The notes under the pieces were generated by a model that made no database searches, was not told the DNA's origin, and saw nothing but the letters and a program-made list of their open reading frames with translations. Source: Oscillospiraceae bacterium (GTDB lineage Bacteria; Bacillota; Clostridia; Oscillospirales; Ruminococcaceae). From it: a stretch of DNA of 64,000 bases. The stretch covers positions 10,375 to 74,374 of the forward strand of contig JAFQMN010000004.1 of the NCBI GenBank assembly GCA_017414435.1. The letters are read 5' to 3'. A program made the position numbers and the translations under genes. Below, one piece after another: positions 823-15,196 of the stretch (position 1 is its first letter; each line of letters begins with the position of its first letter).

Positions 823-1223
823 TACCAGCTGCAAATACTATTTTAACAGCGGATATATTAATAGATACTATCCCTTCTTTGAACTATGCTATGCAATTCA
901 AAAAAGCAATTATTTCAGGAAAAATAGATAACTTAGATGCAATGCGACAAGTAATATTTAAAATACTTAATACTGAACGCTATGACTATATTATCTACTC
1001 TTGGAATTATGGCATTGAACTCAAAGATCTTTATGGTATGCCTTATACCTACATATGTCCAGAACTTGAACGAAGAATAACTGAAGCTCTAACTCAAGAT
1101 GATCGCATTAGGTCTGTAACTAACTTTGAATTTACTCTAAGTTCAAAAAATGAAGTTTTAGTTACATTTACCGTTAATACTGTTTACGGAGATGTTAATA
1201 CTGAAAGAATGGTGGATTTTTAA
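819..1223 (+). CDS. Phage baseplate wedge protein, XkdS / gp25(W)-like position
   Basis: 134-aa ORF with a 4-nt ATGA overlap upstream and a 1-nt overlap with the baseplate J gene. Size and order are typical of the protein preceding baseplate J. Confidence 0.45.
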   Translation: MIPAANTILTADILIDTIPSLNYAMQFKKAIISGKIDNLDAMRQVIFKILNTERYDYIIYSWNYGIELKDLYGMPYTYICPELERRITEALTQDDRIRSVTNFEFTLSSKNEVLVTFTVNTVYGDVNTERMVDF

Positions 1224-2287
1224 TGTACGAAAATGTTACCTATGAAGACATTTTGCAGCGAATGTTAGATAGGGTACCAAATATAATAGATAAACGTGAA
1301 GGATCTATTATATATGATGCTTTAGCACCCGCTGCAATAGAACTTCAGTTAATGTATATTGAATTTGATGTGATTTTAAAGGAAACATTTGGAGATACTG
1401 CATCCAGAGAATATTTAATTAGGCGCGCTGCGGAACGTGGTATAAAGCCATATGAAGCCAGCTGTACAATTCTACGTGCTATAAGTACGCCAGCTAATAT
1501 ATCCATACCTATTGGTGCTAGGTTTTCGTTAGATGATTTAAACTACGTAACCATAGAGAAGCTAGCAGATGGTGAGTATAAAGTGCAATGTGAAACTGCT
1601 GGAAAGATTGGCAACAAATACTTTGGTACGCTTATTCCAATAGAATATATAGCAGGTCTTGAAACCATAGAAATTACTGAACTTCTAATACCTGGCGAAG
1701 ATGAAGAAGAAACAGAAGCCCTACGTACTAGATATTTTGAAACGTTTAAAACTAATGCATATGGCGGTAACCAGAAAGATTACATACAAAAAACAAATGC
1801 AATCAACGGAGTTGGTGCAACTAAAGTAACACCTATATGGAATGGTGGTGGTACAGTACTACTCACCATTTTAAATAGTGAGTTTAATAAGGCGTCAGAT
1901 ACTTTAATTGCTTCCGTACAAAACGAGATTGATCCTACATCTGATGGTTCAGGAGTTGGCATTGCTCCAATTGGACATATTGTTACAGTTAATACCGCTG
2001 AAGAAGTTCCCGTTAATATATCAACTTCCATTACTTTTAAAGATGGTTATTCATTTGTAACCTTACAGTCAGAAATTATTGCAGCTATTGAATCATATCT
2101 GCTTGAAATTAGGAAAGGATGGGCAAATGAATCTGAGAGTATAGTGAGAATCAGTTTAATTGACGCAAAGATATTGAATTTAGAAGGTGTAGTTGATGTT
2201 TCCAACACAGAGATAAACGGTTTTAGTGTAAACCTTACTCTTAACGGATATGAAATTCCCATCTTAGGAGAAATAAGTAATGGATAG
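1223..2287 (+). CDS. Baseplate J-like protein (XkdT-like)
   Basis: 354 aa. The N-terminus MYENVTYEDILQRMLDRVP...DKREGSIIYDALAPAAIEL is the characteristic baseplate J/XkdT opening, and the gene sits in the expected slot. Confidence 0.75.
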   Translation: MYENVTYEDILQRMLDRVPNIIDKREGSIIYDALAPAAIELQLMYIEFDVILKETFGDTASREYLIRRAAERGIKPYEASCTILRAISTPANISIPIGARFSLDDLNYVTIEKLADGEYKVQCETAGKIGNKYFGTLIPIEYIAGLETIEITELLIPGEDEEETEALRTRYFETFKTNAYGGNQKDYIQKTNAINGVGATKVTPIWNGGGTVLLTILNSEFNKASDTLIASVQNEIDPTSDGSGVGIAPIGHIVTVNTAEEVPVNISTSITFKDGYSFVTLQSEIIAAIESYLLEIRKGWANESESIVRISLIDAKILNLEGVVDVSNTEINGFSVNLTLNGYEIPILGEISNG

Positions 2288-2819
2288 AGAAATTAATTTA
2301 ATAAACTACTTGCCGCCATATATTAAAAGGTATAGAGAGATTCAACAAATAACTAATACAGAAAATCTAGAACTTCAACTATTAGCTGATGAATCTGAAA
2401 GAGTAAAAAATAATCAGTTTATATTTACTTGTAATGAAACAGGTATATCACGGTTTGAATCTCTTCTTAATATAACTCCAGAAGCAGAAGAACCATTAGA
2501 TTTAAGAATTTCAAGAGTACTCATGCGCTGGAACGACATGACATCATATACTTGGAAAACACTAGTTCAAAAGCTAGACATACTCTGTGGTGAAACTAAC
2601 TACAAAATATCTTCCGATTCAGATAACTATATGTACACACTCAATGTTCATCTAGATATGTATGGGCAGTTAGACGAACTGCAAAATTTAATAGCATATA
2701 TGATACCTGCAAATATATGTATGTTTATTAATAATATAATAGATTGTTCCTCTATCGGTTCGATTTTCGCTGCTTCAGGTTTAGCTATATGTGATGAATT
2801 TACAATAATAGAAGAGTAA
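2280..2819 (+). CDS. Phage tail protein, XkdU/YmfQ-like (DUF2313-type)
   Basis: 179 aa. LINYLPPYIKRYREIQQI...ENLELQLL resembles the conserved N-terminus of the protein that follows baseplate J in PBSX-like modules. It overlaps the upstream gene by 8 nt. Confidence 0.55.
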   Translation: MDREINLINYLPPYIKRYREIQQITNTENLELQLLADESERVKNNQFIFTCNETGISRFESLLNITPEAEEPLDLRISRVLMRWNDMTSYTWKTLVQKLDILCGETNYKISSDSDNYMYTLNVHLDMYGQLDELQNLIAYMIPANICMFINNIIDCSSIGSIFAASGLAICDEFTIIEE

Positions 2820-2832
2820 GGAGATATTAGAC

Positions 2833-3972
2833 ATGGCAGAATTTAGAGCTATGGTTATAACGAATAGTGGGCAGGAACTAATAGCTAAAACATTAGCAGG
2901 AGAACTTGAATTGCAATTTACTAAGATTTGCCTTACAGATACAGCATATACCGATGCACAATTGCTGGAATTATCTACATTGAATAATATTTGCCAATCT
3001 GCATCTATCTCTAGAGTTTCTAAAACATCTGAATCTGCAATACAAGTTGAAGGTGTAGTTTTAAATGTAAACCTTACTACAGGTTATTATATACAAACAT
3101 TAGGGTTATTTGCAAAAGATTTAAATAACAATGAAGTGTTATATGCAGCTTGTGGTGCAACCATACCAGGTTGGATGCCACCATATAACGGCTCGACCAT
3201 TTCAGGCTGCAATTTAAAATTAATAACTATGGTTTCTAACACATCAAATATAAGCCTTACTGTTGATCCTGCTGCAATAGCTACCATTGAAGATTTAAAT
3301 TCCCTTGAACTATCCTCCATTCAAACTGTAGATGGCTTACATGGTATTAGATATTATAACAATGCTCTTGAAGTTAAGAACAATGCTGGCAATTGGATTA
3401 ATCCTGCATCCTTAGCTACAGCTGCAGATTTAAATTCCCTTGAATTATCCTCCATTCAAACTGTAGATGGCTTACATGGTATTAGATATTATAACAATGC
3501 TCTTGAAGTTAAGAACAACACTGGCAATTGGATTAATCCTGCATCCTTAGCTACAGCTGCAGATTTAAATTCCCTTGAACTATCCTCCATTCAAACTGTA
3601 GATGGCTTACATGGTATTAGATATTATAACAATGCTCTTGAAGTTAAGAACAACACTGGCAATTGGATTAATCCTGCATCTCTAGCTATGAATGATGAAG
3701 TAAATGCCTTAAAACCAAAAAGTAAAACTCTAACACTAAGTGTTTCTAATTGGGTTTTAAACTCCAATACTCAATTATACGAATATACCGTCACAGACTC
3801 AACAGTTTCACCATCACATATTATCAATTGCTATATGGATTTAGACAATCAAGTCAAACTTACTGATGGTTATACTGAAACATATAATGGGTCATATAAA
3901 ATTATTACATCAAAGCAACCGATTGAAAATATTACAATAACTGTAACAAAGCAATTATATGCGAGTTGGTAA
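2833..3972 (+). CDS. Phage tail fibre protein containing three tandem 45-aa repeats
   Basis: 379-aa ORF after the baseplate genes, with GGAG 8 nt upstream of the ATG. It carries an internal near-identical triplication: DLNSLELSSIQTVDGLHGIRYYNNALEVKNN(A/T)GNWINPASLATAA. Confidence 0.6.
   Translation: MAEFRAMVITNSGQELIAKTLAGELELQFTKICLTDTAYTDAQLLELSTLNNICQSASISRVSKTSESAIQVEGVVLNVNLTTGYYIQTLGLFAKDLNNNEVLYAACGATIPGWMPPYNGSTISGCNLKLITMVSNTSNISLTVDPAAIATIEDLNSLELSSIQTVDGLHGIRYYNNALEVKNNAGNWINPASLATAADLNSLELSSIQTVDGLHGIRYYNNALEVKNNTGNWINPASLATAADLNSLELSSIQTVDGLHGIRYYNNALEVKNNTGNWINPASLAMNDEVNALKPKSKTLTLSVSNWVLNSNTQLYEYTVTDSTVSPSHIINCYMDLDNQVKLTDGYTETYNGSYKIITSKQPIENITITVTKQLYASW
3292..3690 (+). repeat. 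In-frame tandem repeat, 3 copies x 135 bp, inside the tail fibre gene
   Basis: GATTTAAATTCCCTTGAA... recurs at 3292, 3427 and 3562 (period 135 nt). Only a few substitutions separate copies, e.g. AATGCTGGC versus AACACTGGC. Confidence 0.95.
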
Positions 3973-3984
3973 GGAGGTAATAAT

Positions 3985-5265
3985 GTGATAGGTAAAATTA
4001 ATACAAAAGGATTTAACATTAACGGAATTATTGAACAATATACGGCGGGTTCAAGTAATGTTAATGCTGGTGATTTTGTTTCTTTTATTAACGGTCTGGC
4101 AGAGAGGACAGCAGCACAATTATATTCTGGTAGTGATGATAGTTACTTATCGGCGGTAGCACTCGGTAAAAACAAGGTATTCATTGCCTATCAGTATAAT
4201 TCATATTTACGAGGCATTGTGTGTACAATAAAACGTACTACTATTACCGTTGGTACTGCTACAACAATTGCTCCTTACTCCTATAATCTCTATATTTCAG
4301 CTACCGCTTTAAGTGATAGCAAGGTGTTTATTTCTTATGGACAATATCAAAGCTATAGCGATTTATATGGCATAGTTTGCACAGTAAACGGTAGTAATAT
4401 TACAGTTGGCAATGCAATAATTCTTGATGCTGCAGCAGGTGCTTCTGGTACATATTTATACTATTCTACCATTGCAGTTGCTCTCGGCTCCGATAAAGTA
4501 TTAATTATATGGGGCTATAATAGTTCTTATCACTACTTAAGAGGTGTTGTGTGTACAATAAGCGGTACAACTATTACTAAAGGAACCATAACCTCGTTAA
4601 GCACTGTAGCTAATTCCGGGTATGGCTTTATGTCTGCAGTTGCATTAAATGACAATGACGTATTTATTGCACATGACTACAATGGTTCCAACTATTATTT
4701 ATATGGCTTGGTATGCCGTATTAACGGCACAACAATTTCAGTTGGAACAGATACATATTTAAGTACCAAAGGCTATATCGCATCGGCAACTTTATTAAGC
4801 CCTAACAAAGTATTTGTTGCACACCGTGGAGATAATAATTATCTATACGGATTAGTTTGTTTGGTAAATAATATGACTATATCTCCTGGGACTGATACAT
4901 TGTTAAGAAATGTAAATAGCTTTAGACTATCGCCAGTTACCTTAAACAATAATTATGTGTTTATTGCGCATTGTCCTAGCGATATAGGGAATCTATACTA
5001 TACAACTTGTGCAATAGATAACACCACAATCACAACTACAACAATTGCAAAGCAATCAGACTACAGTTATTTTTATGGACTATCAGTGGTACGTTATACA
5101 GACCATAACATGATTGTTATTTATGCAAACTCTAAACTTTATGGTAGACTTGTTGGCGGCTATACTATTGCCTCTACAACTTCAGTAGATCAAGATATTT
5201 TGGGTGTAGCTAAAACAAATGCAGTTGCAGGAGCTACAGTTGATGTGTACGTACCAAACATCTAA
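3985..5265 (+). CDS. Phage distal fibre / receptor-binding protein with about 7 degenerate internal repeats (beta-propeller-like periodicity)
   Basis: GTG start preceded by AAGGAGG. The protein repeats the pattern SAVAL..NKVFIA(H/Y)....YL(Y/R)G(I/L)VC.I.GTTI..GT about every 45-50 aa, seven times. Confidence 0.5.
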   Translation: MIGKINTKGFNINGIIEQYTAGSSNVNAGDFVSFINGLAERTAAQLYSGSDDSYLSAVALGKNKVFIAYQYNSYLRGIVCTIKRTTITVGTATTIAPYSYNLYISATALSDSKVFISYGQYQSYSDLYGIVCTVNGSNITVGNAIILDAAAGASGTYLYYSTIAVALGSDKVLIIWGYNSSYHYLRGVVCTISGTTITKGTITSLSTVANSGYGFMSAVALNDNDVFIAHDYNGSNYYLYGLVCRINGTTISVGTDTYLSTKGYIASATLLSPNKVFVAHRGDNNYLYGLVCLVNNMTISPGTDTLLRNVNSFRLSPVTLNNNYVFIAHCPSDIGNLYYTTCAIDNTTITTTTIAKQSDYSYFYGLSVVRYTDHNMIVIYANSKLYGRLVGGYTIASTTSVDQDILGVAKTNAVAGATVDVYVPNI

Positions 5266-5285
5266 AAAATAAGGAGTGAAAACAG

Positions 5286-5600
5286 ATGTATATTCTAACA
5301 GATAAAGACAATGTAATCATGTATATTGCAAATACAGTTTGTAGACAAAAAGAAAATAATTATTATCTTTTAAATGAAAATACAAATATGGCTCTAGCCA
5401 TTCCTCCTGAATTTGTAAAGAGTGCATATGAAGTGGCTGTAATTCCTCAAAACGTTTCCGAACAAAGGTATTGCTATTCTCCTGAACAAGGCTTTTTTAA
5501 AAATGAAAATTTCGTTAAGCACTACAGTAATGAAGAACGCTTAAATGCGCTTGAAGATATAGTTAATATGCTTGTATTGGGAGGAATACAACATGAATGA
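5286..5600 (+). CDS. Phage hypothetical protein (XkdW position)
   Basis: 104-aa ORF with AAGGAG upstream, lying between the fibre genes and the XkdX-like small ORF. I recognise no motif. Confidence 0.4.
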   Translation: MYILTDKDNVIMYIANTVCRQKENNYYLLNENTNMALAIPPEFVKSAYEVAVIPQNVSEQRYCYSPEQGFFKNENFVKHYSNEERLNALEDIVNMLVLGGIQHE

Positions 5601-5697
5601 AAAATTGCAAAATTATTTAAGAATGCAAATTGAAATGGGTAGATTAACTTTAGAAGACATCCAAATTAAATATCCTGACTTTGAGGTGGTATTGTGA
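5593..5697 (+). CDS. XkdX-like small phage protein (34 aa; absent from the ORF track)
   Basis: ATG at 5593 is preceded by GGGAGGA with a 7-nt spacer. Translation is MNEKLQNYLRMQIEMGRLTLEDIQIKYPDFEVVL. It overlaps the stop of the upstream gene and the GTG start of the holin. Size and position match the xkdX slot before the lysis genes. Confidence 0.5.
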   Translation: MNEKLQNYLRMQIEMGRLTLEDIQIKYPDFEVVL

Positions 5698-5915
5698 AAG
5701 ATATAAAGATAAATTGGAAACTTAAATTAACGAGTCGTAAATTTTGGGCTGCTATACTCGGTTTTATCTCTCCTTTACTTCTTAGTTTTAATGTATCAGA
5801 AAGTGTAGTTGCTCAGGTTTCTAGCATTGTTATGTCTGGTGCAACTTTAATTGCATATATTATCGGTGAAGGATTAGTTGATTCCAATAAACAGGGAGAT
5901 GAACGTAATTCATGA
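5694..5915 (+). CDS. Phage holin
   Basis: 73 aa. The N-terminus KINWKLKLTSRKFWAAILGFISPLLL plus a second hydrophobic segment and a charged C-terminus is typical of Firmicutes phage holins. It lies immediately upstream of, and overlaps (ATGA), the endolysin. Confidence 0.7.
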   Translation: MKDIKINWKLKLTSRKFWAAILGFISPLLLSFNVSESVVAQVSSIVMSGATLIAYIIGEGLVDSNKQGDERNS

Positions 5916-6697
5916 TTTTAAAAGAGTGTATGTTAATTAAAAATGCTTGTTATATCCATAACAAAAAAATCACCAATGGTAAGCCAACTGGCATAGTTGT
6001 GCATTCCACTGGTGCTAACAATAAAACTTTAAAAAGATACGTTCAGCCTGTTTCATCTCAACCCTATTACAACGAAGTCATAGTTGATTTAGGTAAGAAT
6101 ATATATAGTAATCATTGGAACAATTATTACGTAGAAAATAACCGCAGCTGTTGCGTTCATGCATTTATAGGTGTTAATGCAACAGGAAAAATAGAAACAT
6201 ACCAAACTCTACCATTTGATATATGCTGCTGGGGTTGTGCATCTGGCAGCAAAGGATCTTATAACTATAATCCTAGTGCTAGAATTCAATTCGAGATATG
6301 TGAAGATAACCTCAATGACCGCATTTACTTTGACGCGGTGTTTAATGAGGCAATTGAATTTTGCGTCTACTTATGCAAACTCTTTGAATTTGGAGCAGAT
6401 AAGATATGTTCGCATCGTGAAGCGTATTTAACCGGGTATGGAAATAACCATGGAGATTGTGACCATTGGTTAAAACGCTTTGGAAAGAATATGGATTGGT
6501 TCCGAAGTCAAGTTAAATCGCAACTAAACGAAGAAAATAATACTCATAATAGAAAATCTATAGAAGAGTTGGCGCAAGAGACAATAGATGGTAAATGGGG
6601 GAATGGAACGGTAAGAAAAAACGCTCTTATCTCTGCTGGTTATAATTACAGCAAAGTGCAAAAGCGTGTTAATGAAATACTCTATAGTAATAAATGA
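5912..6697 (+). CDS. Endolysin: N-acetylmuramoyl-L-alanine amidase with a C-terminal Cpl-7-like cell-wall-binding repeat
   Basis: The N-terminal half resembles amidase_2/PGRP-type enzymes (GIVVHSTGANN..., HREA...). The C-terminus GKWGNGTVRKNALISAGYNYSKVQKRVNEIL matches the Cpl-7 (CW_7) repeat pattern GxWGNGxxRxxxLxxAGYxxxxVQxxVN. Confidence 0.8.
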   Translation: MILKECMLIKNACYIHNKKITNGKPTGIVVHSTGANNKTLKRYVQPVSSQPYYNEVIVDLGKNIYSNHWNNYYVENNRSCCVHAFIGVNATGKIETYQTLPFDICCWGCASGSKGSYNYNPSARIQFEICEDNLNDRIYFDAVFNEAIEFCVYLCKLFEFGADKICSHREAYLTGYGNNHGDCDHWLKRFGKNMDWFRSQVKSQLNEENNTHNRKSIEELAQETIDGKWGNGTVRKNALISAGYNYSKVQKRVNEILYSNK

Positions 6698-7111: not shown

Positions 7112-7144
7112 AAACAATCCCTCAACATTGTTGAGGGATTGTTT
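7112..7144. terminator. Stem-loop (14-15 bp) acting as a likely bidirectional intrinsic terminator
   Basis: AAACAATCCCTCAA-CATTG-TTGAGGGATTGTTT. On the plus strand it is followed by TTTTTG. On the minus strand it begins 6 nt after the TAG of the 37-aa ORF, where the U-tract is weaker. Confidence 0.6.
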
Positions 7145-7150
7145 TTGTCT

Positions 7151-7264
7151 CTAACAGCACTTTTTTTGGCCAGGTTCGATTGCACAGCATGGTGTGCTTA
7201 AAAAGGCTCCGTGTACCTCAGAATCTTCTAAGCTCACAACAAAATCTATTAAATTATTATCCAT
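7151..7264 (-). CDS. 37-aa Cys-rich putative RiPP precursor peptide (not in the ORF track)
   Basis: Hand translation of the minus strand gives ATG(7264) MDNNLIDFVVSLEDSEVHGAFLSTPCCAIEPGQKKCC TAG(7153-7151). A Shine-Dalgarno AGGAGGTG (7280-7273) lies 8 nt upstream of the ATG. The ORF starts 49 nt downstream of the radical SAM/SPASM gene and is followed by a terminator hairpin. Confidence 0.65.
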   Translation of the reverse strand: MDNNLIDFVVSLEDSEVHGAFLSTPCCAIEPGQKKCC

Positions 7265-7313
7265 TACTATTTCACCTCCTTTCTTTACTATTTCTTAGAA
7301 TGTAAATCATATC

Positions 7314-8639
7314 TTAAACAATAACTTTCTTTTTCCTACGGTCGTATTCAAATTTCAAAACATCAAACAGATTGTATTTTAACGTAGGGCAAGTTTTCAA
7401 AGTAACACAAGTGCCCATACACAATGGTAAAATATTGCAGTCAGCACATTCTTTATCTTTAAGTGGGGTATATAAAATATTTTTTAAATAATACGAATTA
7501 TCAATTGATTGATCTTTTTCCTTTTCTTTTTTTATCAGTTCAAAGATATTCCCAATTTCTTTCCCGGGTTTTCCAGCGTCTGTCCAACAGCCAAAAAGAT
7601 TTCCATCTGGCCCTATCATATAAGCATGCTCAGATGTTGCTACACAATGTTGAATAATTTGAGGTAAAGGATAAATGGTTGCTTTAAAACCGAGTTTTAA
7701 AATGTCTACAATATACTCTAGTTCTTTTTTAGAAAATTCTTTGACATCTAAAAAAAGATCAAATTGTTTTGAACATTCACTTGCATAGTTTCTTATTGGA
7801 GCGATCGATACTAAACAATCATTTAAATTTTCTTTTGCAAAAATTTCTAACAGTTCTTTCACTCTTGTTTCATTTTCTTTAGTTGCATGAACACGCATGG
7901 CTACTTTTATACCGCCTGCTTTGAGCATTTTTAAATTGTTAAGAAGGGTATCAAACGTCCCTTTTGATGAATTTTTTAGCTTCCTGGACTTATTATGTAA
8001 ATCAGGTGGCCCATCAAAGCATATTTGTACACCCTCAATTCTGCTTTCTTTCATTTTATTTACTGTACTTTCATCTATAAGGTAGCCATTCGTTATCATA
8101 TATGCTAAAGATTTTGTTTTATATTTATCACAAATATCGTTGATTTTTTTAGATAAACTCCAAATGCTATTTTTTACTAATAAAGGTTCTCCCCCATACC
8201 ATGTAATTCGAATTTTTTTGCCTTTTTTTGCATAATTTTCGCATAGCTCAGCTATAGCATCTTCTACCTCCGTTGTCATCATCAAATTAGTCTTTCTGTT
8301 ATCATAGTTTCCCTCATAACAATAAGGGCAAGCAAAATTACAAGAGTAGGTGGGCATTATAGTTAATTTTAAGTATTCACTATCATATTTACTTTTCTGA
8401 TACATAAATTCTATATAATCCAATTCATTAAAATCGTCGTTAATTATATAACCACTTTTTTCCATGGCTTCTAGTCTTTTTTTATTATCTTCTTCTAATT
8501 CAGACTCTTTTATTGTATCTATTTTATTGTATAAATTCATAAATTTACCATCTGCAACGGCAAACACACTAGTTAAGCTGTTAAAGATTAATTTGTGACC
8601 ATCATGTTCAAAAAATATATTGTACCTAGAATGTTTCAA
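7314..8639 (-). CDS. Radical SAM / SPASM-domain peptide maturase
   Basis: CNFACPYC (CX3CX2C) at about residue 100, GGEPLL, and a complete C-terminal SPASM signature: CVATSEHAYMIGPDGNLFGC (CX13GX4C) followed by CADCNILPLCMGTC (CX2CX5CX3C). The roughly 95-aa N-terminal extension before the cluster motif resembles a peptide-recognition (RRE-like) domain. TTG start with AAGGAGTG 7 nt upstream. Confidence 0.85.
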   Translation of the reverse strand: MKHSRYNIFFEHDGHKLIFNSLTSVFAVADGKFMNLYNKIDTIKESELEEDNKKRLEAMEKSGYIINDDFNELDYIEFMYQKSKYDSEYLKLTIMPTYSCNFACPYCYEGNYDNRKTNLMMTTEVEDAIAELCENYAKKGKKIRITWYGGEPLLVKNSIWSLSKKINDICDKYKTKSLAYMITNGYLIDESTVNKMKESRIEGVQICFDGPPDLHNKSRKLKNSSKGTFDTLLNNLKMLKAGGIKVAMRVHATKENETRVKELLEIFAKENLNDCLVSIAPIRNYASECSKQFDLFLDVKEFSKKELEYIVDILKLGFKATIYPLPQIIQHCVATSEHAYMIGPDGNLFGCWTDAGKPGKEIGNIFELIKKEKEKDQSIDNSYYLKNILYTPLKDKECADCNILPLCMGTCVTLKTCPTLKYNLFDVLKFEYDRRKKKVIV

Positions 8640-8705
8640 TTATATTCACTCCTTTTTTAATTTTTATTTATAATTACAAAGCAAAATTTGCATAAAACAA
8701 TATCT

Positions 8706-8957
8706 TCATTCAAGCTGGTTATTTAAAATTAAATTGATAAAATTTTTAATAACTAAATTATCTTTAATGTTTTGTTCAACTATTTTTGAATTAAACTCTT
8801 TTTCTACATCGTGAACAAGTACAAAAATCTCAAAAGATGAAAAACATAGATCGTCAACAATATTACTATCTAAAGATATTTTTTCTGTTATATCAGGTTT
8901 TATATTTAAAATTATATTCTTCAATTTATTAAAAATAGCTATATTATCTTTTTTCAA
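8706..8957 (-). CDS. Acyl/peptidyl carrier protein-like (83 aa)
   Basis: Size and helix pattern fit an ACP. DDLCFSSFEIFVLVHDVEKEF aligns with the D-S-L/xxVEL phosphopantetheine-site region; the candidate Ser is in FSS. TTG start with a strong SD GGAGGGA 6 nt upstream, and a 4-nt TTGA overlap with the ligase stop. Confidence 0.6.
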   Translation of the reverse strand: MKKDNIAIFNKLKNIILNIKPDITEKISLDSNIVDDLCFSSFEIFVLVHDVEKEFNSKIVEQNIKDNLVIKNFINLILNNQLE

Positions 8958-10375
8958 ATTACATCCCTCCTTTTAATTTTATTTGTATAAGTTTTTTCAA
9001 AAGGTTGATCGGTTAACTCAAATTTATTTACTCGTTTATAAATAGGAAGCGTTGAATTTATTTGTTCAACTATATTACAGATTGCATCATATATTTCTCT
9101 ATGCTTTAAAAAAGCGTTAGAAAATATTTTTGCATATATTTGATTTTTTTGCTTGTATACTATAATTTCATCAATTTCGGGATATTGTAAAAATTTATTT
9201 TCAAGTTCTTCTGGGCATACTTTTTTACCATTATCGAAAATCATTAAATTTTTGATTCTACCAGTAACAAACAAAAATCCATCTTTTATAAAACCAATAT
9301 CACCTGTATGAAACCATCCATCTATTATTACTTTGTCCGTTAACTGTTGGTTGTTATAATAGCCAACCGTAACATTACTTCCTTTGATTAAGATTTCTTG
9401 ATTTTTTTCTGCAATTTTAACCTCATTACATGGTACTATTAAACCTGCTGCATTATCTCTTCCATTTATTAATGGGTTAATAGCAACACCGGGAGAACAT
9501 TCGGTTATACCATAACAACTAGACAAGCCAATACCTAATTTCCTATAACTTTTAATTATAGTTTCTCCTATCTGAGCCCCACCGCACAATATTTTGCTTA
9601 AACAATTTCCTACCGTCTCTTGCAAACCATATTTGGAGATTTTCAGTAGTAAAAATTTAGCAATTTCGGGCACAAGGAGCAAAAAAGTAGGATTTACAAT
9701 TTTTAAATCATCAAAAAATGTTTTTGTATTACTAAAAACAATTTTATTGCCATTAATAATAGAGGCAAGTAATACACAAGTTAAACCGAATAAATGATAA
9801 AATGGTAGAATATTTAAAATTACATCTTTCATTTCATACTTATAAACACTACAACCAGCATATACATTGCAACATAAATTTTTATTAGATAACATAACAC
9901 CTTTTGAAACGTCTGTAGTTCCAGAAGTAAATGCAATTGTACATATCTCATCTTCTGAGGTGTCAGGTAAAATGTTATCCAATTGGTGCGCGGTGTTAAT
10001 TTCTATTTCATCAAAATTTATAACTGATATGTTGTTTATTTTTAAATTTAAAAGAGCTATATCAGTGATTATGGTTTTTATTTCATACTTCGAACATAAT
10101 ATCTTTAATTCTTCTGAACTTAAATTAGGTTCTGCCAGCACAGCTATTCCGCCAGAAACTACAATACCAAAATATGCAACAGCCCATATATAAGAAGTTG
10201 TAGCTAGAATCAAATTGTTATTTTTTTTAATTTGCTTACCAAACTTATTAGCAAAGTAAGCAACATCTAGAAAGAACTGCTTGTAGGTTATTTGTATACC
10301 ATTAGCTTCGAATAAAACATTATTGGAATATTTATAACAATACGTTGATAATAGTTGGCTTAAAGTCTTTATCAA
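8954..10375 (-). CDS. AMP-dependent acyl ligase (FadD / fatty-acyl-AMP ligase-like adenylate-forming enzyme)
   Basis: Adenylation core motifs are present: FTSGTTDVSKGVMLS (A3), YGITECS (A5), GWFHTGDIG (A7), GRIKNLMIFDNGKKVCPEELE (A8), and a C-terminal NKIKRR Lys. TTG start with GAAGGTG upstream. Confidence 0.8.
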   Translation of the reverse strand: MIKTLSQLLSTYCYKYSNNVLFEANGIQITYKQFFLDVAYFANKFGKQIKKNNNLILATTSYIWAVAYFGIVVSGGIAVLAEPNLSSEELKILCSKYEIKTIITDIALLNLKINNISVINFDEIEINTAHQLDNILPDTSEDEICTIAFTSGTTDVSKGVMLSNKNLCCNVYAGCSVYKYEMKDVILNILPFYHLFGLTCVLLASIINGNKIVFSNTKTFFDDLKIVNPTFLLLVPEIAKFLLLKISKYGLQETVGNCLSKILCGGAQIGETIIKSYRKLGIGLSSCYGITECSPGVAINPLINGRDNAAGLIVPCNEVKIAEKNQEILIKGSNVTVGYYNNQQLTDKVIIDGWFHTGDIGFIKDGFLFVTGRIKNLMIFDNGKKVCPEELENKFLQYPEIDEIIVYKQKNQIYAKIFSNAFLKHREIYDAICNIVEQINSTLPIYKRVNKFELTDQPFEKTYTNKIKRRDVI

Positions 10376-10412
10376 GATATCACCTTCATGTGGTAATACA
10401 ATTTTTTTATAG

Positions 10413-10985
10413 TTAATCTAGTGAAATATATTTTTTAAACTTATCAAAAAGATTATAAAATTCATCTTTAAACATAGCAATAAGATATTCATCGTGATAT
10501 TCACCTTGAACAAATGCATGTCTTTTTCTTATTCCTTCAATTTTAAACCCAGCTGAAGTTATATTATCCAAGCTGTTTTTATTAAAATCCAAAACAGACG
10601 ACACTACTTTTTTTACAGGGAAATATTGAAACATATAATCAAGAAAAATCAACCAAGCTTCTGTATTTATAGGTGATTTTCTGTATCCAGGTTTTATATA
10701 AGTGCCAGCAAAAAAATTTCCATTTTCTAGGTCTATAAAAGCATACCCTACATATCCAACTAATTGTTCCCCTTTTTTATCTATAATGAAAAAATAATTA
10801 TCGTATTCATTATTATCGTTTAAATTTTCGATTTTATTTTTAAACTTGGCACATGAGTAAATTTTTTTATGATCACTGTTCCATTTGTTTAATTCATTAA
10901 GATTATTTTCCCATTCATAAAAATCGCTCAAATATTTATCTTCATAGGTAGAAAGATAAATATGCTTACTTTCAAGCACTTTCAT
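10413..10985 (-). CDS. GNAT-family N-acyltransferase (RimJ/RimL-like)
   Basis: Acetyltransferase-fold pattern (...LVGYVGYAFID..., GYRKSPINTEAW, FNKNSLDNITSAGFKIEGIRKRHAFVQGEYHDEYLIAM). I place the start at ATG 10985 (MKVLESK...) because AAGGAGGA sits 5-6 nt upstream; the longer track ORF start (11045) has no SD. Confidence 0.7.
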   Translation of the reverse strand: MKVLESKHIYLSTYEDKYLSDFYEWENNLNELNKWNSDHKKIYSCAKFKNKIENLNDNNEYDNYFFIIDKKGEQLVGYVGYAFIDLENGNFFAGTYIKPGYRKSPINTEAWLIFLDYMFQYFPVKKVVSSVLDFNKNSLDNITSAGFKIEGIRKRHAFVQGEYHDEYLIAMFKDEFYNLFDKFKKYISLD

Positions 10986-11073
10986 CGCCATCCTCCTTAT
11001 TTTAATCATACCAGTTATACCAGATTGTGCTGCATTCCCAAACACATATCACGATATTAAAGTTTTTTATTTT

Positions 11074-11101
11074 AGTATAAACCCCACAATAAAATTCACA
11101 A
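11074..11101 (-). promoter_or_regulatory. Candidate sigma-A promoter of the GNAT-ligase-ACP-rSAM-peptide operon
   Basis: On the minus strand: TTGTGA (11101-11096), a 16-nt spacer, then TATACT (11079-11074), about 90 nt upstream of the GNAT ATG. Sequence match only. Confidence 0.3.
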
Positions 11102-11103
11102 TA

Positions 11104-11134
11104 CCCCCCCCCATTTTTGTCGAATTTTGTCGAT
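11104..11134. repeat. C9/G9 homopolymer followed by two tandem decamers (TTTTGTCGA at a 10-bp period)
   Basis: Nine consecutive C at 11104-11112. TTTTGTCGA occurs at 11115-11123 and again at 11125-11133. Both lie immediately upstream of the candidate -35. Confidence 0.9.
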
Positions 11135-11282: not shown

Positions 11283-11709
11283 AACATCCCCCGGCATAGC
11301 CGGGGGATGTTACTATTACGTCTAAAAGGCTATTTCTTAACAACATCTCAAGGTGTATTACCATTCCAATGCGTGCGTTTTTTATCTTACTTTCTACACT
11401 TAAATGGTTTTTTTATATTCTTTTATTGGGGTTTGGCTGTGCATAACTATTCTCTGTGCAAAAAACTGCTTTGTTCAAATTTATATCCTAGATTAAACCA
11501 TTCCAATCACATAACTCCCTTAGTATTTTTCCTATCTTTAATCTTTTTCGTTGTAAAACATTTTTCTTCTCCTATGTTTCGTGGTGTATACTCTATATGG
11601 TACTTACAATTCCATTCTGTATGTAATAAACTGTTAACGTTATTAAAATTACCGCTACTATTTTGTCATATAGTTTAAGTCTTTGTTACTACCGGCACTG
11701 CCGGTAGTA
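11283..11709 (-). mobile_element. Decayed IS200/IS605-family element (relic) bounded by two GC-rich subterminal hairpins
   Basis: Perfect hairpins AACATCCCCCGGC-ATA-GCCGGGGGATGTT (11283-11311) and TACTACCGGC-ACT-GCCGGTAGTA (11687-11709) bracket a frameshifted tnpA(Y1)-like remnant. Both hairpins share a CCGGC-N3-GCCGG core. Confidence 0.5.
11310..11640 (-). pseudogene. IS200-type tnpA (Y1/HUH transposase) pseudogene with frameshifts and stops
   Basis: Minus-strand translation from about 11627 gives LHTEWNCKYHIEYTP. After a frameshift it gives KHRRRKMFYNEK, and after another RLKIGKILRELCDWNGL. This tracks the conserved IS200 TnpA N-terminus (AHTxWxCKYHIVFxPKYRRxxxY....LGxILRxLCxWKxV) as I remember it. 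There is no intact start, the later part is barely recognisable, and several stops occur. Confidence 0.55.
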
Positions 11710-11719
11710 TTTTAAATAA

Positions 11720-11757
11720 AAAACCACCTAGGTTGAATTTTAACCCAGGTGGTTTTA
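11720..11757 (-). terminator. Rho-independent terminator of the large surface-protein gene
   Basis: Minus strand reads AAAACCACCTGGG-loop-CCTAGGTGGTTTT followed by a T-run. It starts about 28 nt after the stop at 11786. Confidence 0.7.
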
Positions 11758-11785: not shown

Positions 11786-14700
11786 CTATTTTGCTACTTT
11801 CGATTTGCCCATTTTCTTTAAGGTAGCAGCTTTTGCTGTAATTTTTAAAATACCATTTGCATCAGTTTTTGCCTTGCCTAATTTTACAACTGCGCCTTTA
11901 GAATCTAAGCCCCAAACTGTAATGCTTTTCTTTTTCATTTCTGTTTCTAAGTAAATTGTTGTAGTGCAGCCCAAAGTGCCAAGATCGCCAGTATCTAAAA
12001 CAATATTCGTCTTTGCATCTTTTTTATACTTTGTTGCATCTTGCTTTTCAACCTGCAATAACAATTTGCCGGTAGCTGTAGCTGTTGATGCCTGAATATC
12101 TGCACTGTTAATTAAAAGTGTAGAATCTTCATCGTTAACAACCAGCCTGACTGTGCCTTTAGTTTTTGCTTTTAAGTCCGCTAAAGTCATTTCAAAACCG
12201 CTGTTATTTAATATCTCATACTTCCCTTTTGTCTTTTCAACAACCAATGGGCTTTCTTCAATCACATATGCATATTTTGTATCGTCAATGCTAAACGTTA
12301 CAACACCATCATCCATTGTGTATACGCCCATATTTTTTACTAACTTTCCAGTTGACCTGTTGATTTTATATACCGAACATGGCAAATCAATCTTTAACTT
12401 TTTAGAGATCAAATCAGCTGCGCCATAAACATCCACTGTAAACGGTAACTTCTTTTGTACTTTACCAAAAGTTATAATCTGAATATCTTCACCGTTACCA
12501 AAAAGTTTTTTGTTTTTATTTATAGCTTTGGTTAAAAGAGCACTTTTTTCTACCATATCGGTATCTAAATTTATCTTTCCGTTTTTCTTTTCCCAAGCTT
12601 GCAACCAAGCATACACTTTTTTTGCTTCAGCAGCAGACATCGTGCCAGTTTCTTTAGAGCCAGCTGCTTTTCTTAAATTTTCTTTGTTAATTTCAAAACC
12701 AGATTCTCCACTTTCTCCTGCACTGTTAGAGCTTGTGGTAAACAAACTTTTAGAACTGTTAGTTTTGCTAGCTGCAGTGGTTGTTGCGGTTGTAGCCCAG
12801 GACACTTCATCCATTGGAATCTTTTCGCCGCTAATAATTTCTATTCCATCAACTATATTCGAGTTGAAAGCTCTTCTAAGAGATTCTGCACTTTCAAAAA
12901 TACCGCCGTTGCCTGTTAAGCTAAAGTCACCAGAGGTAGATCTTATTGTTCTGCCGTTAATTGTAATCGTTGTTGTATCTGTAGGTGCTGCTGTTGTGGT
13001 TGTAGAACCACCCGAAGACGAACCACTTGATGATGAACCGCCTCCACCGCCAGAGCTGCCGCCAGAGCTACCGCCTGAGCTTGATGACGAACTGCTTGAC
13101 GAAGACGATGATGATGTAGTAGTGGTGGTTGTTGTAGTTGTTGTAGCTGTTGGTACATATGCTGCCGGTTCAGCCACGGTAAATGTAAGCGAATTTGTTC
13201 TACCACTAAAGTCTGTTAATTTAAATGTATATGTTCCAGCTACTGTAGTTGTATATTTACAGTGGTTAACATATGGGGCATCTGCAGGATTTTTACTCAA
13301 ATTATTAGTAACACTTAAAGCATCACTGCTTGCCGGGTGTGTAAGCGCAATTGTTTTAACTGCTGCAACCCCTGCATCATTAAAATCAAATGCAAGCGTT
13401 ACACCGCCGCTCACACTACCTGTAACAGAAACTGAAGAGCTACCATTAGCTACTTCCACTGCATCAGCTGTGCCTAATTTATATGTAATGTTTTCAAACT
13501 CCGGTTCAACTGCATCGTAATAAAACGGTGCTATACCAACAATAGCCTCACTGCTATTACGTAATACTAATGTGTAAAAGCCTGCTGGCGTAGTTCCCCA
13601 AGTTATATCAAAGTACTTTGTAGTTTCACCATTTTGTTTATCCACTCTTAATTGTGCCAACACATCAACATCGGTTTCATCTTCTGTGGTTTCTGTTGCA
13701 CTCTTCGGTTTTGCAAAGTTTGCATTTTGGCTATCTTTAACTGTAATTGCACTACCAGCTGCAATCACAGTCCTTCCTGTTAAAGAATTTATTATATAAC
13801 TGTTAGCTGCACTATAATTAGAATCAGAAGCAGAAGCTACATCTTTAAAGTAAACTGGCAAATATTCTGTTACTACAGTACTACCATCTACTTGCGTTCC
13901 AACATACCCTGAACATGGAGCTGTGGTTGATAGCAAATCAGTTAAAAGTGCTGCTAATTTCCCATTTGTTCCCAAAGTTGCAGGGCCAGCATAGTCTAAA
14001 CCTGCCACTGTATAGCTGTTTCCTGTGGAATTTAAAAACACACTTTCACCAGCGGTTGCTCCACGCCATAATTTTGGTCCATTTCCAACCTGATTATATT
14101 TTACCATAAACACGGTTGGGTTGCCCCCAGACTGCGTAGCGTCAACATTTGCCAACAATGTAATTGGAGTTGTTTCTATAAAAATATCAACATCAGATTT
14201 GCTTGCTGCTGTACTTTTTGCTAAAACCGTACTATCTCCAACACCTGCTGTTCCGTTCGTGTAAGCCTGATTGCCTTTCTCTGTTGCATAGTTATCTGCA
14301 GCAAATGTAAAGCCACTTGTATTAAAGTTTGCGTTATCGCCAAGGTTAGCAACTGCACCACCAATTGCAGCATGGCAACCTGTTATTGTAACGCTGCTAC
14401 CATTTAAAACTCCTTTGTTAAGTATAGCACCGCCTTGCTCTGCACTACAACCGCTAATTTCACTACTGCTAATGAGCATTCTGCCTTTGTTGTAGATTGC
14501 ACCACCATACACGGCTTTATTATTTTTCAAATCTGTATCCTGTATAGTACAGCTACCATCAGTATCAACTAAAATTAACGAACTGCAATCTGCTACATTG
14601 CCACCATTTATTATTATTTTATTAGTTTCATTGCCATTAAAAAGTAAAATTGTTCCACTCTCTACAAAGAATAAGCAACCTTTGTAATCCGAGCCTCTAG

Positions 14701-15196
14701 AAATTGTATTGCCAGCACCAGAAATTTGACATGCATAGGCTTTACAAGCAAGTTCTTCGGTAACTGTTATATCGTCACTCAAAGTAACAGCTAAAATAAA
14801 CGGCACATTTATGGTTGCACTGCCTGCCGTTACCCCAGCAACTTCAGCCGGTGCATTGTTCATTGCCTGCTTTAATTCCTCAAAGGTAGAAACAGTTATT
14901 TCTGTTGCTGCTGCCAACACACCTCCTTCTTTTGCTATTGTATAATTGTAACCAATTTCACTATCTCCTAAAGATGTAACAATAGTTCCATCAGATTTAA
15001 CTATACCGGTAGAATTTTCTGCTGCAACAGTGTAGCTAACGCCATCCACCGAACCTGTTGCGGCTTCAGCTTCACCTGCTACACCAAGTGGTGTGCCAAC
15101 TGCAAAAGTTCTACCTGTTCCCAAAGTGTTTGCAAACACTAAAAAAGCCACAAAACTCGAAAGGTGCTTTTTTAGTTTTAATTTTATAGATCTCAT
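11786..15196 (-). CDS. Large secreted surface protein with GGAI-type (polymorphic-membrane-protein-like, predicted beta-helix) repeats, Ig-like middle region and T/S/G linker
   Basis: 1136 aa. Signal peptide MRSIKLKLKKHLSSFVAFLVFANTLG, with AAGGAGGAAG 8 nt upstream of the ATG. Repeated motifs YGGAIYNKG / QGGAILNKG / IGGAVANLG are separated by Cys-containing turns. A homopolymeric T10-S13-(GGS)n stretch follows. I found no LPXTG, S-layer homology or choline-binding motif. Confidence 0.7.
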   Translation of the reverse strand: MRSIKLKLKKHLSSFVAFLVFANTLGTGRTFAVGTPLGVAGEAEAATGSVDGVSYTVAAENSTGIVKSDGTIVTSLGDSEIGYNYTIAKEGGVLAAATEITVSTFEELKQAMNNAPAEVAGVTAGSATINVPFILAVTLSDDITVTEELACKAYACQISGAGNTISRGSDYKGCLFFVESGTILLFNGNETNKIIINGGNVADCSSLILVDTDGSCTIQDTDLKNNKAVYGGAIYNKGRMLISSSEISGCSAEQGGAILNKGVLNGSSVTITGCHAAIGGAVANLGDNANFNTSGFTFAADNYATEKGNQAYTNGTAGVGDSTVLAKSTAASKSDVDIFIETTPITLLANVDATQSGGNPTVFMVKYNQVGNGPKLWRGATAGESVFLNSTGNSYTVAGLDYAGPATLGTNGKLAALLTDLLSTTAPCSGYVGTQVDGSTVVTEYLPVYFKDVASASDSNYSAANSYIINSLTGRTVIAAGSAITVKDSQNANFAKPKSATETTEDETDVDVLAQLRVDKQNGETTKYFDITWGTTPAGFYTLVLRNSSEAIVGIAPFYYDAVEPEFENITYKLGTADAVEVANGSSSVSVTGSVSGGVTLAFDFNDAGVAAVKTIALTHPASSDALSVTNNLSKNPADAPYVNHCKYTTTVAGTYTFKLTDFSGRTNSLTFTVAEPAAYVPTATTTTTTTTTTSSSSSSSSSSSSSGGSSGGSSGGGGGSSSSGSSSGGSTTTTAAPTDTTTITINGRTIRSTSGDFSLTGNGGIFESAESLRRAFNSNIVDGIEIISGEKIPMDEVSWATTATTTAASKTNSSKSLFTTSSNSAGESGESGFEINKENLRKAAGSKETGTMSAAEAKKVYAWLQAWEKKNGKINLDTDMVEKSALLTKAINKNKKLFGNGEDIQIITFGKVQKKLPFTVDVYGAADLISKKLKIDLPCSVYKINRSTGKLVKNMGVYTMDDGVVTFSIDDTKYAYVIEESPLVVEKTKGKYEILNNSGFEMTLADLKAKTKGTVRLVVNDEDSTLLINSADIQASTATATGKLLLQVEKQDATKYKKDAKTNIVLDTGDLGTLGCTTTIYLETEMKKKSITVWGLDSKGAVVKLGKAKTDANGILKITAKAATLKKMGKSKVAK
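12968..13152 (-). repeat. Low-complexity Thr/Ser/Gly-coding tract (TTTTTTTTTTSSSSSSSSSSSSSGGSSGGSSGGGGGSSSSGSSSGGSTTTT)
   Basis: Read directly from the translation of 11786..15196. The DNA here is locally GC-rich and repetitive (GCCGCCAGAGCT units, GGTGGTTGTTGTAGTTGTTGTAG). Confidence 0.9.

Follow-up and report, generated by a model that had tools for sequence, protein, structure and literature searches.

Introduction

Several GNAT enzymes are known to transfer acyl groups to ribosomal peptides or to take them from carrier proteins. In the goadvionin pathway the GNAT GdvG/AprG takes an acyl group from a carrier protein and puts it on a ribosomal peptide, giving a lipo-RiPP (PMC8784127; PMC11685415). 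The acyl chain is built by PKS/FAS-type enzymes, the peptide core is of an avionin/lanthionine type made without radical SAM (rSAM) enzymes, and the producers are actinobacteria. In the selidamides the GNATs PhaN/KspN/NpuN catalyse the fatty acylation of Lys/Orn side chains; these clusters are proteusin, Nif11 or lanthipeptide types, mostly from cyanobacteria and proteobacteria, and the paper mentions no dedicated ligase and a carrier protein only once, in connection with goadvionins (PMC8784127). In altemicidin biosynthesis SbzL, SbzG and SbzI adenylate an acid, load it on a stand-alone carrier and transfer it to an amine, and the canonical GNAT P-loop is replaced (PMC11685415). The acceptor there is a small-molecule dinucleotide, the donor is 2-sulfamoylacetyl, and neither a ribosomal peptide nor an rSAM enzyme is involved.

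Among the rSAM maturases, the closest described systems are the Clo7bot peptide/TIGR04334 maturase system of Clostridium botulinum and C. sporogenes and the structurally characterised thioether synthase CteB (SCIFF). A computational family (CcpM, CLI_3235 and the TIGR04069 "peptide maturation system acyl carrier-related protein") combines an rSAM peptide maturase with a small ACP-like protein in Clostridia.

Here we analysed a window of 64,000 nucleotides (contig JAFQMN010000004.1, positions 10,375 to 74,374, assembly GCA_017414435.1) from a gut or rumen bacterium, an Oscillospiraceae genome assembled from a metagenome. It carries an operon in which an rSAM maturase and a small Cys-rich peptide lie next to a ligase, a carrier and a GNAT. 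A single ANL ligase is proposed to load the carrier, in contrast to the PKS/FAS-type enzymes of the goadvionin pathway, the partner is an rSAM/SPASM maturase, and the hosts are Clostridia. In the literature and family libraries searched, nothing like this combination is described.

Results

Organisation of the operon

The preliminary description had reported five co-directional genes separated by 37, -4, 66 and 49 nt, and this arrangement was confirmed (Table 1). Each start is preceded by a Shine-Dalgarno sequence, which is strong for the peptide gene. The starts agree with the conserved N-termini of homologues, MKVLESKH for the GNAT and MKHSRYN for the rSAM.

Table 1. Features of the operon and the PPTase gene encoded in the same window (positions within the window).
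Position	Strand	Start codon	Length	Feature
11099..11133	-			Conserved cis-element, probably promoter or operator
10413..10985	-		190 aa	GNAT acyltransferase, RimJ/RimL/SpeG-like Acetyltransf_3 type
8954..10375	-	TTG	473 aa	ANL-superfamily acyl-AMP-forming ligase
8706..8957	-	TTG	83 aa	Small acyl-carrier-type protein
7314..8639	-	TTG	441 aa	Radical SAM/SPASM peptide maturase with N-terminal RRE-like domain
7151..7264	-	ATG	37 aa	Precursor peptide
7112..7144	-		15-bp stem	Stem-loop 6 nt after the peptide stop codon
46396..47085				PPTase

The operon is bracketed by two conserved elements. The upstream element, TCGACAAAATTCGACAAAAATGGGGGGGGGTATTG, consists of two 10-bp-spaced TCGACAAA repeats, a poly-G tract and TATTG. 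It has one match in the window and none in 100 shuffles, and it lies upstream of the GNAT in 6 of 8 architectures that contain the GNAT-ligase-carrier triad, in otherwise diverged intergenic DNA. In other metagenome contigs the same element lies directly upstream of unrelated RiPP precursors, including a nisin-like lanthipeptide.

The stem-loop at the 3' end (-22.3 kcal/mol, z = -5.7) is conserved after the peptide stop in two diverged relatives, L001 and L096 (L numbers designate the loci and genomes recovered for comparison). The preliminary description had called it a terminator hairpin; however, the terminator scan scores it only on the + strand, and on the operon strand it is followed by UUUAAAA rather than a U-run. 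It marks the 3' end of the operon, as transcript end or stabiliser.

The maturase and its precursor peptide

Profile searches with the rSAM protein gave hits to Radical_SAM (PF04055, 1.1e-16) and Fer4_12. The best family is the Clo7bot maturase TIGR04334 with 364.6 bits, well below the cutoff of 600, followed by other RiPP maturases, including TIGR04463 (258 bits) and CefB (220 bits), whereas anSME scores 72. Identity to Clo7bot-type maturases is 35-42%. The CxxxCxxC motif (CNFACPYC; C100, C104 and C107) is invariant in 22 homologues, and seven C-terminal Cys (C332, C351, C398, C401, C407, C411 and C417) are invariant, although the Pfam SPASM model itself did not hit the protein. An AlphaFold model (pLDDT 84.6) shows an N-terminal domain of three strands plus helices (residues 1-85, pLDDT about 90), and its best full-length fold match is CteB (5wgg), which contains an RRE domain, with an alignment spanning 473 columns, followed by anSME, TigE and SuiB. 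Thus, the rSAM falls among RiPP maturases and not among sulfatase maturases.

The 37-aa peptide, MDNNLIDFVVSLEDSEVHGAFLSTPCCAIEPGQKKCC, has no NCBIfam or Pfam hit. Homologous peptides with the same core, (T/S)PxCA(I/V)ExG...CC, follow the homologous rSAM in L001 and L096, and the leader motif x-F-[IV]-[VI]-x-[PL] is shared with true Clo7bot peptides. In contrast to Clo7bot-type loci with arrays of 5-10 paralogous precursors (seen in L014, L011, L007 and L009), the window has a single precursor with a different core, CC...CC rather than CxxC repeats.

The preliminary description had suggested that the locus may belong to the CcpM/CLI_3235/ACP-related family. This is not where it belongs: the rSAM scores 103.1 bits against a cutoff of 500 (CcpM, TIGR04068), the carrier 14.9 against 70 (ocin_ACP_rel, TIGR04069), and the peptide has no hit.

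The ligase, carrier and GNAT

The ligase matches AMP-binding (PF00501, 1.9e-51) and the C-terminal domain (3e-05), and its nearest families are MenE, FadD, 4CL and oxalyl-CoA synthetase. The core motifs A3, A5, A7 and A8 and the A10 lysine are present (TSGTTDVSKG, YGITE, HTGD, GRIKNLMIFDNGKKVCPEELE and NKIKR), but the P-loop TSGTTDVSKG is atypical (D/S). At the A4 position the ligase has H, not D (LPFYHLFG), and it resembles acid-CoA ligases rather than amino-acid adenylation domains. Its close family is tight (45-92% identity), after which identity drops to 35% or less. The 4-nt overlap couples the ligase gene to the carrier gene.

The carrier protein has no Pfam PP-binding hit and fails every NCBIfam cutoff; generic ACP models score 19-30 bits against cutoffs of 66-106 (NF002150, 30 bits against 66). 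Nevertheless, an invariant SSF(E/D) motif aligns with the phosphopantetheine serine at the start of helix 2, that is Ser36 (DSL) of E. coli ACP and DSF of DltC. The orthologue in L102 gets a weak PP-binding hit, and analogues in L003 and L043 match PF00550 at 4e-14 and 8e-10, respectively.

The GNAT matches PF13302 (4e-10) and PF13420 (7e-10), and its best solved relatives are RimJ (3igr), SpeG and MccE (3r95); no significant sequence hit to a solved SbzI chain appeared. Its AlphaFold model is of low confidence (pLDDT 67). In place of the CoA-binding P-loop Q/R-x-x-G-x-G/A the window GNAT has R-K-S-P-I-N, where RimJ has Q-G-K-G-I-M, and family variants are RKSSIH, RGMAIN, RKTGVN and RGMPIN. 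Loss of the canonical glycines has been reported for the carrier-dependent GNATs SbzI and FeeM (PMC11685415), a criterion that is suggestive but not diagnostic.

The triad lies beside different rSAM maturases

To determine whether the triad and the rSAM-peptide pair are co-conserved, relatives of the GNAT and ligase were recovered with their neighbourhoods. Close relatives of both are always found as GNAT-ligase-carrier, forming a tight, rare family. In all 8 distinct architectures recovered the triad lies within about 2.5 kb of rSAM peptide maturases, next to small peptides, and the maturases belong to different subfamilies. L082-84 have three Clo7bot-like rSAMs plus an ABC exporter, L086/L103 a CefB-like rSAM, L102, L103 and L106 a CXXX-repeat rSAM (496-515 bits against a cutoff of 350), L101 an anSME/DynA-like rSAM, and L097-100 HxsB/DynA-like rSAMs. 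The window-type rSAM and peptide pair is found with the carrier or ligase directly upstream in L096 and L001.

In one lineage (L097-100) an rSAM domain, HxsC-like in L097, is fused to the GNAT. The GNAT part is 32% identical to the window GNAT, a representative has 505 aa, and the ligase-defined locus was seen in 56 contigs. L106 is a complete cluster with MetK, rSAM, CXXX precursor, GNAT, ligase, carrier, ABC exporter and Sfp-type PPTase.

Distant analogues (GNAT, ligase and PP-binding protein) also lie in Clo7bot-type clusters of the GTDB genomes L003 and L010, and ligase plus carrier occurs in L012, L043 and L044. However, of 79 Clo7bot-like loci in reference genomes, 71 have neither ligase nor carrier nearby and only 8 have a ligase, so that acylation is optional for this rSAM family. 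True Clo7bot loci in C. botulinum and C. sporogenes have no ligase, carrier or GNAT.

Discussion

The preliminary description interpreted the operon as a candidate acylated thioether RiPP system, and our data support this reading, although the chemistry itself remains inferred without experimental evidence. The evidence also widens it, since the triad is a portable module, attached in related gut and rumen Clostridia to at least five different rSAM maturase subfamilies, and not a feature of this one operon. This points to an undescribed way of making acylated ribosomal peptides.

Most likely, and with moderate confidence, the operon consists of two functional modules under one promoter. In the first, the N-terminal domain of the maturase would bind the short leader motif (DFVVSL) and the rSAM domain, with two auxiliary clusters, would crosslink the Cys-rich core (TPCCAIEPGQKKCC), most likely through Cys-derived thioethers. 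Since the chemistry of Clo7bot-type maturases is itself uncharacterised, thioether formation rests on analogy with CteB/PapB-type enzymes and on the four Cys in the core. In the second, the ligase would adenylate a carboxylic acid and thioesterify it onto the phosphopantetheine arm of the carrier, made holo by a host Sfp-type PPTase, and the RimJ-like GNAT would take the acyl-carrier as donor and N-acylate the alpha-amine or a Lys of the peptide. That the peptide is the acceptor is inferred. Precursors in triad-bearing clusters share no common acceptor motif, and the C-terminal Lys of the window peptide is not conserved in L096. The operon has no protease, exporter or immunity gene.

The nearest characterised relatives of the GNAT acylate protein N-termini, polyamines or aminoacyl-nucleotides, so a non-peptide acceptor is possible. 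The triad might make a separate N-acyl amino acid or N-acyl amine, as by FeeM-type synthases that use acyl-carrier donors (PMC11685415), and merely travel with RiPP clusters on mobile DNA as a second product, co-factor or signal. The similarity to the polyamine acetyltransferase SpeG and the lack of a shared acceptor motif would fit this, but we consider it unlikely, because in the window the triad shares one promoter element and one 3' hairpin with the rSAM and the peptide, the association with rSAM maturases holds in 8 of 8 architectures across five subfamilies, the GNAT is fused to an rSAM domain in one lineage, and none of the recovered contexts shows the triad without an rSAM nearby. It is still less likely that the GNAT confers self-immunity by acylating the mature peptide inside the producer, as MccE does with processed microcin C. 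MccE is among its solved relatives and no other immunity gene is present, but an immunity acetyltransferase would use acetyl-CoA and would not need a dedicated, translationally coupled ligase and carrier, nor a PPTase as in L106, and the degenerate P-loop also argues against a CoA donor.

Similarly doubtful is the possibility that an rSAM enzyme works on the acyl-carrier, tailoring the bound acid (for example by C-methylation or desaturation) before transfer, or that the carrier-like protein is a scaffold or chaperone for the peptide, as proposed for the ACP-related protein of CcpM systems. The rSAM fused to the GNAT in L097 has no recognisable peptide-recognition domain (its match starts at residue 7), and NCBIfam holds a computational family of ACP-related proteins in rSAM peptide systems (TIGR04069, weak hit). 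Yet the only rSAM of the window has the RRE-rSAM-SPASM architecture of peptide maturases and a precursor with a matching leader motif, and a ligase with an intact adenylation motif set and a PPTase imply a genuine thioester carrier. A chance juxtaposition, or an anti-phage defence island with a viperin-like rSAM and unrelated cargo at the end of a prophage, is very unlikely. The operon abuts a prophage lysis module and the rSAM has weak pVip hits in PADLOC (4.5e-14), but these cover only the generic rSAM core, while RiPP maturase models score 100-365 bits over the full length. The other four proteins have no PADLOC hits, and the gene order is conserved across unrelated genomic contexts.

Organization of the operon

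Inspection of the open reading frames and the sequence confirmed the five co-directional genes on the minus strand that had been proposed in the preliminary description, at exactly the coordinates given there (see table). The genes are separated by 37, -4, 66 and 49 nt, each start is preceded by a Shine-Dalgarno sequence and three of the starts are TTG. Comparison with homologues confirmed the chosen starts, since MKVLESKH is invariant in six GNATs, and M1, K2, S4, Y6 and N7 are invariant or nearly so (90% or more) in 22 rSAM proteins. A perfect 15-bp hairpin follows the stop codon of the peptide gene (-22.3 kcal/mol, z = -5.7) and is conserved in two diverged relatives; however, on the operon strand it lacks a U-run and the scan scores it as a terminator only on the opposite strand, although it had been taken as the terminator of the operon. 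No Rfam family (riboswitch or leader) was found anywhere in the window.

Coordinates of the operon genes, neighboring features and features of other loci recovered in the searches (designated L with a number)
Feature	Location	Coordinates	Strand
GNAT gene	Window	10413-10985	-
Ligase gene	Window	8954-10375	-
Carrier protein gene	Window	8706-8957	-
rSAM gene	Window	7314-8639	-
37-aa peptide gene	Window	7151-7264	-
Conserved cis-element	Window	11099-11133	-
Poly-G tract within the cis-element	Window	11100-11108	
GC-rich hairpin	Window	11283-11311	-
Terminator of the 1136-aa protein gene	Window	11720-11756	
1136-aa protein gene	Window	11786-15196	-
Prophage late region	Window	9-6697	+
Holin gene of the prophage	Window	5694-5915	
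Endolysin gene of the prophage	Window	5912-6697	
PPTase gene	Window	46396-47085	-
HxsC-like rSAM::GNAT fusion gene	L097	8484-9992	
Conserved protein following the CXXX-repeat maturase	L102	8971-9282	
Conserved protein following the CXXX-repeat maturase	L103	7492-7785	
Conserved protein following the CXXX-repeat maturase	L106	3247-3522	
Remnant of the window-type rSAM gene	L082	6879-6983	
Second cis-element and start of a second GNAT gene	L087	4690-4989	

Predicted functions of the five gene products

The proteins were compared with the Pfam and NCBIfam models. The GNAT belongs to the Acetyltransf_3/4 group, which includes RimJ, RimL, SpeG, PseH and MccE, and its best solved relatives are RimJ (3igr) and SpeG; an AlphaFold model of this protein was too uncertain (pLDDT 67) to justify a fold search. 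The ligase is an ANL enzyme (PF00501, 1.9e-51) nearest to MenE, FadD, 4CL and oxalyl-CoA synthetase. It has a histidine in LPFYHLFG, at what is probably the position of motif A4, where amino-acid adenylation domains carry the amino-binding Asp, which points to a carboxylic acid substrate. The carrier scores only weakly as ACP (30 bits against a cutoff of 66, no Pfam hit); nevertheless, its invariant SSF(E/D) serine aligns with the phosphopantetheine serine of E. coli ACP and DltC.

The rSAM protein scores best on RiPP maturase models, with 364.6 bits for Clo7bot TIGR04334 (cutoff 600), 258 for TIGR04463, 220 for CefB, 116 for PapB and only 103 for CcpM, while the anaerobic sulfatase maturase model scores 72. 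It contains CxxxCxxC and seven conserved C-terminal Cys. An AlphaFold model (pLDDT 84.6) matches the RRE-containing thioether synthase CteB over its full length as the top PDB hit, followed by anSME, TigE and SuiB. The peptide matches no family model.

Thus, we consider with high confidence that the locus is an rSAM RiPP operon. True Clo7bot membership was rejected on the cutoff and on the type of precursor, and membership in the CcpM / CLI_3235 / TIGR04069 (ACP-related) system, which the preliminary description had suggested as a possible home for the locus, was rejected on scores. An anti-phage defense system was likewise rejected, since only generic viperin-core hits appeared for the rSAM protein.

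The precursor peptide

The only close rSAM homologue (57%, locus L001) is followed at the same spacing by MDFIVSPEEIMSEKYNSMKATPACAVELGRKGCC, and a third lineage, L096, has MDFIISPEEIINEKYNSMKTSPCCAIELGRTSCC. These share with the window peptide the core (T/S)PxCA(I/V)ExG...CC. The leader motif D-F-[IV]-[VI]-S-[PL] is the same x-F-I-V-x-P motif that starts genuine Clo7bot peptides (MKFIVKP...) in C. botulinum, C. sporogenes and C. senegalense, which fits a homologous recognition domain in the maturase.

Linkage of the GNAT-ligase-carrier triad to rSAM maturases

To determine whether the triad is linked to the rSAM-peptide pair, which was the key refutation test of the preliminary description, searches were started from both sides. 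Starting from the rSAM protein, 79 loci from GTDB reference genomes were found to carry 28-41% identical Clo7bot-like maturases, and none of them has a close homologue of the window GNAT or carrier. Starting from the triad, the picture is sharp. The GNAT has only six close clusters in 5.8 billion proteins, and in an exhaustive search of 1.84 billion representatives only its own cluster scores below 1e-90, the next scoring 1e-31. The ligase has a tight family at 45-92% identity, followed by a drop to 35% or less.

Every contig long enough to judge shows GNAT-ligase-carrier in that order, next to rSAM peptide maturases. The window and L081 have a Clo7bot-like rSAM plus peptide. In L096, with L001 and L094, the ligase is 92% identical and is accompanied by a window-type rSAM and peptide, on a contig with Rep3 and ParA genes. 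In L082-84 a 34-aa remnant of the window-type rSAM (76% identical) is followed by three Clo7bot-like rSAMs (one scoring 506 bits), a 35-aa peptide and an ABC exporter; this remnant, located between the carrier gene and a different set of rSAM genes in L082, is direct evidence of module swapping at the carrier/rSAM junction. L086-89 and L103 contain a 473-aa CefB/TIGR04463-like rSAM, and in L087 a second copy of the cis-element described below and the start of a second GNAT gene follow the first triad-rSAM unit, which suggests tandem cassettes. L102 and L090 contain a 678-aa CXXX-repeat-target maturase (496 bits, above the cutoff of 350) and a Cys-rich 44-aa peptide, and L101 an anSME/DynA-like SPASM enzyme, with YcaO, another rSAM and an ABC exporter on the other strand.

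L097-100, in which the ligase is on 56 contigs in several sample sets, encode a 77-aa Trp/Asn/Cys/Asp-rich precursor with WDN/CNW repeats, two SPASM maturases and a 502-aa fusion of an N-terminal HxsC-like rSAM (CNHNCLFC) to a C-terminal GNAT that is 32% identical to the window GNAT, followed by ligase, carrier and an ABC exporter. L106 encodes MetK, a CXXX-repeat maturase (515 bits), a CXXX-repeat precursor, GNAT, ligase, carrier, an ABC exporter and an Sfp-type PPTase. In triad-bearing clusters, the ~680-aa CXXX-repeat maturase is always followed by a conserved protein of about 91-103 aa with no family hit (L102, L103 and L106). The association therefore holds in eight of eight architectures across five rSAM subfamilies, and together with the domain fusion and the dedicated PPTase this makes a functional link hard to dismiss. 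The apparent truncation of the carrier gene in L001, the split ligase in L094 and L101 and the frameshifted rSAM in L096 involve scaffold gaps or short contigs and were not treated as evidence of decay.

Distant analogues recur in Clo7bot-type clusters of reference genomes. L003 has GNAT, an ABC exporter, a ligase and a PP-binding protein directly after the precursor array, L010 has a GNAT plus a ligase::PP-binding fusion, and L012, L043 and L044 have ligase plus carrier. In total, eight of the 79 loci have a ligase within 8 kb; L003 and L010 were themselves used to build the search profiles.

Proposed acyl donor and mechanism

The work on altemicidin biosynthesis describes exactly this three-protein logic, in which SbzL adenylates, SbzG carries and the GNAT SbzI transfers, and reports that carrier-dependent GNATs (SbzI, FeeM) have lost the CoA-binding P-loop Q/R-x-x-G-x-G/A (PMC11685415). 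In the alignment with RimJ, the window GNAT has R-K-S-P-I-N where RimJ has Q-G-K-G-I-M, and the family variants also lack the pattern. This is suggestive rather than diagnostic, but it fits the translational coupling of the ligase and carrier genes and the PPTase in L106. The window also encodes an Sfp-size PPTase (PF01648, 5e-19) among housekeeping genes (GdpP, L9, DnaB), which is 36% identical to the PPTase of the L106 cluster and is a plausible activator of the carrier protein of the operon.

We propose that the ligase activates an acid and loads the holo-carrier, that the GNAT moves the acyl group to an amine of the peptide, and that the rSAM enzyme recognizes the short leader and crosslinks the Cys-rich core, in an order that could not be determined. 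A conserved Lys acceptor in the peptide core was rejected, because the C-terminal Lys pair is not conserved (GRTSCC in L096), and the precursors of the different triad-bearing clusters share no motif. Both points favor a sequence-agnostic site such as the alpha-amine, in keeping with the RimJ/RimL-like family, but this is inference. Thioether formation is also inferred, from the Cys-rich core and from CteB/PapB-type relatives; no paper on the Clo7bot branch was found in the literature searched. Taken together, it is more likely than not that the triad serves the RiPP pathway by acylating the peptide, and the interpretation in the preliminary description is supported and generalized to further rSAM clusters.

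Relation to known systems

In the proposed mechanism the operon works like two known systems, the carrier-dependent GNAT acylation of goadvionins, where a RiPP is the acceptor, and altemicidin biosynthesis, which has the same ligase-carrier-GNAT triad; here, that logic is joined to a CteB/Clo7bot-like rSAM maturase. Acylation is what turns many peptides into membrane-active antibiotics. In ribosomal peptides it is known from only a handful of systems, namely goadvionins, lipolanthines, selidamides and lipolasso peptides, none of which involves rSAM crosslinked peptides and none of which has been reported from anaerobic gut Clostridia. No description of a ligase-carrier-GNAT module in rSAM RiPP clusters was found in the literature searched, which leaves out most subscription-journal papers, so that a prior description elsewhere cannot be excluded; a further search on OhkG, FlmE and CefB returned only irrelevant papers. 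No Pfam or NCBIfam model is specific for the parts of the module, and NCBI annotates the genes only generically, the one product name checked being that of the ligase (MBQ3067866.1, "AMP-binding protein"). Genome mining by product name would therefore pass over the module.

A compact three-gene donor pathway that is naturally swapped between different rSAM peptide clusters predicts a family of undescribed acylated sacti/ranthipeptide-like products in rumen and gut microbiomes, and offers a small, modular enzyme set for engineering peptide lipidation. More tentatively, and on balance somewhat less likely than not, the triad would be a class-independent, horizontally mobile lipidation plug-in for rSAM RiPPs in gut and rumen Clostridia. 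The same cassette would convert thioether, CXXX-repeat and Trp/Asn-rich (cyclophane-type) peptides into N-acylated peptides, and would be expressed from a promoter element shared by a wider bacteriocin regulon that also drives lanthipeptide genes. This would make it the first acylation system known to operate across several rSAM RiPP classes, and a ready-made tool for lipidating peptides.

A conserved upstream element and genomic context

A 35-nt element, TCGACAAAATTCGACAAAAATGGGGGGGGGTATTG, lies 114-148 nt upstream of the GNAT start and is the only conserved island in the otherwise diverged upstream regions of six triad architectures. The element, TCGACAAAnTTCGACAAAAATG(4-9)TATTG, occurs upstream of the triad in the window and also occurs in L086, L087, L090-L095 and L101-L103. 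Scanning metagenome contigs for the element identified six further loci (L107-L112), none with the triad. In five of them it is located about 60-530 nt upstream of a candidate RiPP precursor; two of these are followed by an rSAM plus an exporter or an rSAM plus a large downstream ORF, and a third by an rSAM alone. One of these precursors, in L111, is nisin-like (...ITSKSLCTPGCGKTGTGNSFCCG). In the sixth locus, L109, the element precedes a 248-aa secreted protein. The element therefore looks like the promoter or operator of a bacteriocin-type regulon, which independently supports reading the window operon as a RiPP operon and, together with the triad, gives a handle on how these bacteria co-regulate several bacteriocin loci. 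No regulator gene was found next to it in L107-L112. The homopolymeric G tract between the repeat and TATTG varies from 4 to 9 G among loci, with 9 in the window, and could change promoter spacing (phase variation) or could reflect sequencing noise.

The window is from an NCBI genome assembled from a metagenome and labelled "Oscillospiraceae bacterium". The operon lies between the lysis end of a prophage (tail, baseplate wedge, tail fiber, holin and endolysin genes), which ends about 415 nt from the 3' hairpin, and chromosomal genes encoding a 1136-aa, apparently secreted protein, UvrB, MurT/GatD, QueH and PolC, and may be prophage cargo or chromosomal. Relatives are located beside plasmid, toxin-antitoxin, resolvase and restriction-modification genes; the module therefore belongs to the mobile gene pool. 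However, a phage- or plasmid-borne copy was not found, since blastn gave no match in the phage collection and only trivial matches in plasmids, and neither the ligase nor the cis-element gave a hit in IMG/VR. The 1136-aa protein encoded immediately upstream of the operon has no Pfam hit; its translation shows an apparent N-terminal signal-like sequence and a long Thr/Ser/Gly linker, and its gene has its own terminator. In the AT-rich spacer between this gene and the promoter region of the operon lies a GC-rich 13-bp hairpin (AACATCCCCCGGC...GCCGGGGGATGTT), which the scan calls terminator-like.
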